From positions 341,744,001-341,808,000 of the forward strand of contig CM126204.1 in NCBI GenBank assembly GCA_052327205.1: a DNA stretch of 64,000 nucleotides. The letters run 5' to 3'. The notes beneath the pieces are model-generated. The model was not told where the DNA came from. It was given only the letters and a program-made list of their open reading frames with translations, and made no database searches. The position numbers were made by a program, and so were the translations under genes. Origin of the DNA: Somniosus microcephalus (lineage: Eukaryota). Positions 43,956 through 46,607 of this stretch are shown piece by piece. Numbering within the stretch: the stretch's first letter is position 1; the number at the start of each line of letters is the position of its first letter.

Positions 43956-46607
43956 ATGCCTAAGCATGGTAACATCAACAACTTCGATGCCGAGGTGGAA
44001 GATTGGGCCACGTATGTAGAACGTATCGAGGTATATTGTGAGGCCAATAAAATAGAAGATGATGATAAAGCTATAACCTTGCTAAACTCGATGGGCGCGA
44101 AGACATACGGGTTATTGAAGCATCTTCTATCACCAGCTAAACCGGCGGATCAGACTTTCGATAATATTGTTGCTGTTCTGAAGGATCACTTGAACCCCAC
44201 ACCGCTGATGTTGGCGGAACGATTCAAATTTTATGCGAGAACGCAACGGAAAGAAGAAAGCAACGCGGAATACTTGGTCGAACTGCGTAGACTAGCGAAA
44301 TACTGCCAGTTTGGAGGAAATCTGACAAAGGCATTGCGAGACAAGTTCGTGTGCAGGCTGTCGAAGGAAGGAACGCAAAAGCGACTACTCGAAGAGAACG
44401 ACCTTACACTTGAGAGGGCTGTCCTTATTGCAGCATCGCACGAAGCCGCAGCGAAAGGAACTGCGGAAATGCAGCTAAAGGCAGCGGTACTCAGTGTGGA
44501 TCAAATTACTTCGGGTACAACGAAATGTTATCGTTGTGGGAAGACAACACACGACCAGAACCAATGCTTGTTTAAAAACCAGGAATGTAGAAAATGTGGC
44601 AAACTGGGTCACATAGCTAAAGTATGCCGGTCAGGAAAGAAGACCAACAACCAAAAAAAGCCATCACAGGGAAAGTACAACAAAGTACACAAGGTGGCTG
44701 AGAAGAGTTCAGACGAACAGAATTCGGATTCAGACCCAAACGGCCAGGAACTGGGTAGTCTGAGAATTCACAATGTGAGTAAGAAAGCTGACCTACAAAC
44801 TATCTGGGTCATGCTAAAAATAGCCGGAGTCCAAGTGAAAATGGAGTTGGACACTGGATCAGCCCTATCAGTCATAAATCGAAGGGATTACAACCGGCTA
44901 TTCTCACATATACCCTTGAGAGATACCAAGTTCGTATTGCAGACATACATGGGGCATAAAGTGTACCCCATGGGGAAGATAAGAGTCAAGGTGAGAGACA
45001 GGGGCAAAGAACACCCAGGAATGGACTTATATGTACTACCTGAGGGAGGACCACCACTTCTAGGACGGGAGTGGATCAAGAAAATAGACATGGAATGGCA
45101 CTACCTAAAAGCAATAACGAGTGAGGACTCGGTGCAGACAATCAGCTCAGACTCTGAAACGGATGACGATGAGACCAGCCCAAATATGAAAGACAAGTCT
45201 AAAATGAACTTGCTGACTGAGGTTAGAAAAACGAAGGCGTGCATAAAGGCTTATGCTCCAGAGGAGAACAAAGTTTCAGAACAGAATTCCACTGAACAAC
45301 AACAACATAGTTTGACAGAGAATTCTGAGTCTGTCCAGTTTACAGACATATACATTACTGAGGAACACCGAGCTCAAACTCAACTTTATTTCAAATTACA
45401 ACAGCAATTAGAACAATTGAGTTGCCATCTTGAGCAAGAGACAACAGCAATGAAAAAGTTCTTGGACACAGAGTGGGAGAATCTGGAAAGACAACAGAAG
45501 CAGCTGGGGGAGGAAATGGAGCAGGAGCACACAAACTGTCTGCGCGAGGAGGCCAAACGAATCAAAGCTGATTCGGTCTCTGAAGGTGCGTGCTCTAATC
45601 TAGTGGAGCAAGATGTTCAGCAACTGAAGGCGCTTGTTAGCAGGTTGCAGGCAGAAAAGGCTGATTTGGTCGCCATGAATTCCGAGCTCCTACTGAAGTC
45701 GGGTGCAGCATCACCGGACGATTCATTTGTGGAAATTCGAATGGTGGAGGCTGCGGATGATGGCGAAGTAGAAGCAGCAAAGGGACCCCAGTGCAAGGTT
45801 CTAAACAGCCCTGCAGCTAATGGGAAATGGATGATGGCAGAAGAGTTAACAGCCAGCCAACTCCTCCAGGGCAAGGTTATAAACAGCCCTGTAGTTAATG
45901 GAAAAGGGATGATGGCAGAAGAGTTAACAGTCAGCCAACTCATTCATATGCTGAGGGATAAAACTCTAAAATGGGAAAAACTTAAATACGAGCCTCAATC
46001 TTCAAAGGGAAGGGAGCTCTCAAAAGTCATTGGAAGAGCTGAGGTGGCAACCCAGACTGAGAAGTCTGCAGCAGAACAGCCCTTGGATGCCAAAAGTACG
46101 CTGACGCACGGAAATGTAGAACAACAGAATACTGAAACAGCTACTTCAGTAGAGGGATTGAATAGTCCGATCAATCAATCTCCGAATGAAGTTGAAGTAT
46201 TGAAATCACAAATGAGGTCATTAGTAAAAGACTTGCAGGAAGCCCAGAAAAAGCGGGATGAATCTGAACGCATGATGAAGTCTCTTCAGGACAGATGTCG
46301 GGATTTGGAACAAAAGTCGGCTAACGTCCAGCTGGGTAAGGAGGAAATAGAAGACCCTCTCGCTGGCCTAGCTCAGGACGACACCGAATATTACCATGAT
46401 CTGTTGAGTGGCACTGAATATTACGAGGACCTGGTCTGCCCAGCTTGTGCCGAGAACTCCCAAAGTGCCGAAATCAGGATGAATCACTTAAAGTCTAAGG
46501 AACATAGGGAGATGGTGGCGTTACAGCTGGCAGCTGACAATGGAGCTCCGAGAGTCTCCAAGAAGCAAAAAAAGGAAAAGACGAAGCAGAAGATGATAAC
46601 CATCTGA
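43956..46607 (+). CDS. Gag (two CCHC knuckles)-aspartic protease fused in frame to STK10/SLK-like coiled coil, optineurin fragment (LIR) and DNAJC21-like zinc finger; 883 aa from ATG
   Basis: [14 protein letters not shown] / [114 protein letters not shown]. Confidence 0.88.

Follow-up and report, generated by a model that had tools for sequence, protein, structure and literature searches.

Exons of STK10, probably taken up from a circular RNA, in a multicopy non-autonomous Ty3/gypsy clan of Somniosus microcephalus

The window analysed here is a stretch of 64,000 nucleotides of the Somniosus microcephalus genome (GCA_052327205.1; contig CM126204.1, positions 341,744,001 to 341,808,000, forward strand), from an assembly of 6.45 Gb. 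Within it lies a 4.9-kb non-autonomous Ty3/gypsy LTR element in which a segment of the kinase gene STK10 is fused to Gag-protease and to further host-derived pieces. Its features, in window positions, are as follows.

42382..42386, + strand: target-site duplication CTTTC, 5 bp (right copy at 47264-47268)
42387..42642, + strand: 5' LTR, 256 nt, TG...CA, differing from the 3' LTR at 2 of 256 nt
42644..42653, + strand: primer-binding site TGGCGACGAG
43956..46607, + strand: single ORF, 883 codons from ATG, a Gag-protease-STK10-OPTN-DNAJC21 fusion
43956..45113, + strand: Gag with two CCHC knuckles, and aspartyl protease with LDTGS, both from the parent family (Ty3/gypsy)
45119..45363, + strand: STK10 exon 9 piece, acidic linker, 86.5% identical to the host exon
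45360..45571, + strand: STK10 piece from exons 11-12, where the PKK coiled coil begins
45563..46348, + strand: OPTN piece, six spliced exons, aa ~133-384 of shark OPTN, 79-95% identical to the host exons
46356..46575, + strand: DNAJC21 piece, C2H2 jaz zinc finger, decayed, end approximate, weak match (E 0.017)
46579..46790, + strand: what remains of the end of STK10 exon 8 and of the start of exon 9, 92% and 74% identical to the host exons
46995..47006, + strand: polypurine tract
47008..47263, + strand: 3' LTR

The TG...CA LTR pair, the primer site, the polypurine tract and the target-site duplication are those of a Ty3/gypsy element, and a perfect 5-bp target-site duplication was also present in 13 of 14 other copies checked. 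The primer-binding site may be tRNA-Ser-like; in its primer site, two knuckles and single ORF, the clan may resemble the Mag clade of Ty3/gypsy. The open frame around the fusion ORF comprises 887 codons (43944-46607), and neither the ORF listing nor Pfam found RT, RNase H or integrase in the element's ORF, where intronless host exons stand in place of the internal part, as in LTR-mediated retrocopies. The Gag-protease region is 84% identical in DNA to a parent copy; Pfam matches to protease and zinc knuckle fell under the cut-off in the window copy and over it in sister copies. The window element is thus one young copy of a non-autonomous clan. Nine of 20 copies picked by DNA are open from the frame start through the zinc finger, a proportion that would be compatible with neutral decay from an open-frame source. 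At C8:48.99-49.00 Mb (L049), two window-type copies lie in tandem, apparently sharing an LTR, and the first is split by a 2.7-kb insertion.

A sequence-only reading of this DNA had assigned 45360-45566 to a captured coiled-coil fragment of STK10 or SLK, and the peptide that it quoted is indeed encoded there. The PKK family of Pfam (PF12474) matched this segment with an E value of 4.2e-12, exceeding the curated cut-off, and with 1.3e-12 when the whole ORF protein was scanned. At the DNA level, the segment is 86.6% identical to exon 11 and 89.6% identical to exon 12 of host STK10, and the intron is gone. The PKK score above cut-off, together with this identity to host exons, rules out a chance match between low-complexity coiled coils. 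The best named relatives of the ORF protein were shark OPTN and, at 76% over the segment, shark STK10. Of the two donors proposed, only STK10 is upheld, by the closest PKK, an STK10-specific linker and the exon structure. The segment is 77% identical in amino acids to the same-genome STK10 and to shark STK10 (P0048), versus 49-65% for the other STK10/SLK-family rows, all of them non-chondrichthyan. SLK is ruled out by 51-58% identity for SLK-named rows versus 77% for STK10, in a comparison that covers non-chondrichthyan SLK rows and a weak tree of 69 columns. The host STK10 gene lies at C8:167.17-167.28 Mb (exons numbered from coding matches). It has a GC donor at intron 10 (C8:167193.7 kb), and two further STK10/SLK-family genes are found at C8:2.2 Mb and C30:27.5 Mb.

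The segment proposed from the sequence is real, but the capture is larger. Upstream lies the exon 9 piece (45119-45363; BLASTP, 63% identity to shark STK10 aa 400-483), joined to the exon 11-12 piece through an in-frame deletion at GAGG. Downstream lie the exon 8/9 remnants (46579-46790), mostly beyond the stop codon and terminating at the exit point used in copies that carry STK10 as their only host gene. The fusion to OPTN is in frame, as had been read, but not some 12 codons downstream: OPTN similarity begins at 45563 and overlaps STK10 by a common 9-mer, CAAAGCTGA, at 45563-45571. Because the two genes have this word in common at the joint, there is no 12-codon spacer, and the microhomology that was to be looked for between the donor mRNAs is present as these 9 nt. 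The OPTN piece includes the leucine zipper and the FVEI motif and contains a 78-nt tandem duplication (45788-45943). In a less decayed sister copy, the DNAJC21 piece showed 68% identity over 38 aa. Two exons other than the zinc-finger exon place the DNAJC21 gene at C1:2.65-2.67 Mb; a candidate at C3:356.57 Mb matched in the J domain only, looks like another DnaJ gene and was rejected. Compared with the element copies, host OPTN as assembled (L105, C17:85884-85886 kb) contains two single-base insertions close to a boundary of exon 5/6 type; they would put the gene out of frame and are either an assembly error or a real lesion.

A genome search with shark STK10 retrieved intronless copies in which aa 375-709 are followed by aa 290-392. 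These STK10-only copies are fused to the same Gag-protease and end in an integrase-like tail. All three examined as DNA have the exon order 9'-10-11-12-8-9', at 97.5-100% identity to the host. In these copies the exact donor of exon 12 abuts the exact acceptor of exon 8, which is the splice-exact, non-colinear joint expected of a circRNA retrocopy. In the window copy the back-splice joint has been overwritten, while the permuted order, the exon 8/9 tail and the exit joint are kept. The permuted exon order points to a circular RNA template. Exons 8-12 total 1,245 nt or 415 codons, a multiple of 3 without in-frame stop. A 32-mer spanning the back joint had 1,139 genome matches at up to 2 mismatches, and a control had 0. 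Clan matches span only STK10 aa 290-710 among the matches listed (47 of 44,585 candidates scored); STK10 exons outside the circle were found intronless once, elsewhere than in the clan.

The protease-RT boundary pattern without STK10, which stands for the autonomous parent of the clan, gave 13,635 parent-type matches. Among 20 parent-type loci, 14 span 5.06-5.42 kb between LTR ends, three are longer and three lack a clear LTR pair in the stretch; in five of the 20, both flanks match an STK10-only copy at 97-98.5% identity. One parent copy that was scanned has the gypsy order protease, RT, RNase H, integrase. Intron 7 of STK10 (C8:167.208-167.213 Mb), just upstream of exons 8-12, also contains a full-length but decayed element related to the parent family, in sense orientation; with 69% identity to the window gag-protease, it was ruled out as the parent.

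Alignment of parent and STK10-only copies defines both ends of the capture. At the entry, parent and exon 9 have in common the 12-nt word TATTGGATGAGG, the sole exact 12-mer common to the circle and the parent's internal 4.8 kb. At the exit, exon 9 breaks off at the entry site, and the STK10-only copy continues with parent sequence from CTAGATGAG, near the pol end. Since entry and exit use one site in exon 9, the captured length equals one circle within about ten bases. Microsimilarity amounts to 12 nt at the entry, 7 of 8 nt at the exit, 9 nt at the STK10/OPTN joint and 4 nt at the deletion, the four joints on which it was judged. Most simply, this is read as two switches of template, to a circular RNA in the same particle and back again, and we consider it probable (roughly 85%) that the STK10 capture is one turn of a 1,245-nt in-frame circular RNA of exons 8-12. 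The RT of the parent, inside the particle, would have switched from the pol end onto the co-packaged circle, copied it once through the back-splice joint and returned to the parent at the start of RT. A return at this point would have replaced RT, RNase H and integrase. RNase H may be what restricts copying to one turn; the coincidence of entry and exit may also have nothing to do with such a limit and stem simply from two words in the parent that happen to be similar.

The same splice-exact joint would be obtained if template switching had captured a linear RNA with repeated exons, whether the repeat was made by trans-splicing, by exon repetition or through a tandem duplication of exons 8-12 that has since disappeared; non-colinear joints can arise otherwise (Dong et al., PMC4897178). 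The circle itself was seen nowhere directly, and the joint reads described below are explained by the elements. We nonetheless regard a repeated-exon source as quite unlikely. The 140 kb of host STK10 examined contain a single copy of each of exons 8-12, and the capture stops after very nearly one unit, a length for which a linear repeat gives no reason. Moreover, long flanking introns are a trait of circle-forming exons, and the intron upstream of the exons in question measures 15.5 kb.

RT jumps between host pieces are common in the clan, so that one could also picture a jump joining two linear STK10 mRNAs, or a single folded one, and landing on both splice sites by chance. The back joint argues against this: AG alone is shared there, versus 4-12 nt at the other joints examined. 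A splice-exact backward jump is expected by chance in 15 of 774,390 cases, or in 15 of 59,311 when 2 shared nt are demanded; the probability of 2.5e-4 or lower under this uniform model makes a chance landing very improbable.

The remaining structures can be placed by their nesting. Copies exist in which OPTN lies between STK10 exon 12 and exon 8, with the back joint replaced, and further copies add DNAJC21 while still reading through the STK10 tail. Another branch retains the back joint and carries CGNL1, 93% identical to a shark CGNL1; the host CGNL1 gene was not located in the genome. STK10 is a donor independent of OPTN, as the sequence-only reading had it, but not the second one: it was captured first, as shown by the STK10-only copies and by the position of OPTN between pieces of STK10. 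OPTN would later have overwritten the back-splice joint through the 9-nt shared word, and DNAJC21, like CGNL1 in the other branch, would have come after. Subsequent microhomology switches would thus have deleted part of STK10 and brought in pieces of OPTN, DNAJC21 and CGNL1 mRNA. In a gag-protease tree of 56 of 57 rows (L098 excluded as short), the STK10-only copies fall among parent copies and the window's family sits on a long branch; the tree does not fix the order, because 28 of 53 branches are open and the root is unreliable. The clan retains LTRs, primer site, Gag and protease and would have been moved by the parent's enzymes in trans.

Copy numbers were estimated from junctions. The STK10/OPTN joint had 2,431 matches and the window-type junction pattern 1,419. 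A variant in which the OPTN zipper and FVEI are deleted was met by chance, and its joint had 4,305 matches. Because this joint, the STK10/OPTN joint and the back joint structurally exclude each other, the clan numbers at least about 7,900 copies, recombinants aside.

Ten sequencing runs labelled as three organisms contain part of the window's element; none of the indexed runs listed with it is an RNA run, which speaks neither for nor against expression. Over the host exon 8-12 region, two RNA runs of organism B, which may differ from the assembled species, gave 76 and 60 reads across the back joint and, in the main row, 144 and 117 across the joint of the exon 9-11 deletion, whereas the canonical exon 9-10 and 10-11 joints had 0-4 reads in both runs (among the 15 of 1,043 joints listed). 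Few canonical joints beside many back and deletion joints indicate that the reads stem from clan copies with the deletion. Reads were mainly in one direction in one run and mixed in the other, and the joint reads may include intronic read-through or DNA. The same joints occur in contigs of organisms A and C. A literature search for circSTK10 returned no report.

We then considered selection on the captured sequences. The dN/dS of Gag-protease versus the parents was about 0.2, a low value that is partly inherited from the autonomous lineages. By simple count, dN/dS was 0.52 for the payload overall and 0.37-0.44 for the coils; this signal of purifying selection on the coils was lost under a control matched for mutation spectrum (omega-like 0.71, p 0.058; PKK alone, p 0.22; linker neutral). 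The OPTN zipper and FVEI showed 1 amino acid change in 59 codons versus sister copy L093, against 78 in 360 elsewhere (p 5e-5, post hoc), with a similar synonymous rate in both; versus L084, 5 of 59 codons had changed (p 0.02), in a comparison that covers 4 references.

A payload that serves as functional cargo would be compatible with a circular origin: the coiled coils might mediate oligomerisation, or the OPTN zipper and LC3-binding motif might act as a selective-autophagy decoy. Frame and sense are kept at all major junctions seen, three of the four donors contributed coiled coils, and the conserved zipper and FVEI and the simple dN/dS of the coils fit such a role. However, the spectrum control weakens the case for the coils, and the commonest junction counted is the one that deletes zipper and FVEI. 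Families C, D and E came from protein searches, which are biased to in-frame forms, and local recombination with a less diverged copy could explain the conserved OPTN segment. Cargo function thus appears doubtful to us. A more elaborate form of it, in which a circRNA-seeded clan takes up one host mRNA after another in frame while selection acts on its Gag-protease-coiled-coil protein, with the zipper and LC3-binding motif making the window's branch an autophagy or trafficking decoy or adaptor, seems unlikely. A protein atlas search returned generic coiled coils only. We favour the reading that the host pieces are mostly passengers that drift and that the open frame itself is kept; the frame may stay open for translation of Gag-protease or for RNA stability.

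LTR-mediated capture with microsimilarity and multi-gene chimeras has been described (Tan et al. 2016, PMC5131818, available text). As in the LTR-mediated retrocopies of that text and in maize Bs1 (cited there and in the available text of PMC5408686), spliced host pieces replace an internal part of the ORF, joints are microsimilar, several parental genes contribute and non-autonomous retroposition continues. Unlike the retrocopies in the available text of PMC5131818, the clan has an exon-permuted first template, thousands of copies and a Gag-protease-fused frame built by serial captures; the word "circular" is absent from the main text of Tan et al. as available. CircRNA-derived pseudogenes, above all those of mouse circRFWD2, have been described with 33 high-confidence copies and a mechanism called mysterious (Dong et al. 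2016, PMC4897178). The clan resembles them in having the back-splice joint in genomic copies and in the association with an LTR element (MMERVK10C-int, in a figure legend of that paper). It differs from the circRFWD2 pseudogenes (PMC4897178) in that the parent, both switch points and the one-turn length are resolved, and in being a coding LTR family with the joint at 1,139 places. A review, in its available text, suggests a link between LTR-mediated capture and circRNA pseudogenes (PMC5408686).

Like the TR-GAG elements, as presented in the available text of PMC8704663, the clan has LTRs and Gag without RT or integrase and was presumably moved in trans. Unlike them, it is an animal Ty3/gypsy lineage with protease kept and an ORF extended by about 490 host-derived codons (PMC8704663, available text). 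TR-GAG elements have a single Gag-only ORF, whereas protease and a host fusion are present here; the clan works like a TR-GAG element but is not one. Retroviral transduction of host genes yields defective elements with gag-host fusions that depend on a helper. The clan is likewise defective, gag-host fused and presumably helper-dependent; it differs in lacking env and in showing no sign of infectivity or payload function. No gag-host fusion was recognised among the representative-search matches inspected, which are part of the 126 listed.

LTR capture and circRNA pseudogenes are thus known separately, and a junction-resolved one-turn case amplified to such a scale was not found in the literature searched. 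More precisely, the open-access literature yielded no account of the clan or of a junction-resolved one-turn circRNA capture; the supplements of Dong 2016 and Tan 2016, possibly with comparable detail on circRFWD2, lie outside this scope. The route of circRNA retrotransposition had been left open, and in this clan the parent, the donor gene, both switch points and the intermediates can all be read from a single genome. It offers a signature for such events, namely a splice-exact back joint within an LTR element, about one circle long, with the same entry and exit site. One capture of this kind can give rise to some 8,000 copies, a family in which host exons continue to be shuffled in frame. 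In RNA-seq and annotation, the clan copies can drown out reads of host STK10 and pass for a circRNA.

Outside the LTR clan, the 3' exons of STK10 occur in another intronless retrocopy at C3:354658271-354658948 (L076; aa 758-982, 98-100% DNA identity), which is joined to a LINE RT fragment on the opposite strand. In the window itself, no host gene was recognised in the 17 frames scanned. A second Ty3/gypsy element occupies 35757-40388 on the minus strand, with a terminal 200-nt direct repeat at 100% identity and with gag, protease, RT-RNase H and integrase spread over several frames. A gypsy RNase H-integrase fragment and several LINE-type RT fragments lie at 31213-32421 (+), 49777-51495 (+), 12529-13491, 22311-23366 and 27048-28175. 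Finally, two repeats of 96-99% identity lie some 5.5 kb from each other in 57277-63117 and have matches in inverted orientation at 23613-23944; the probable explanation is another LTR element together with a solo repeat related to it.
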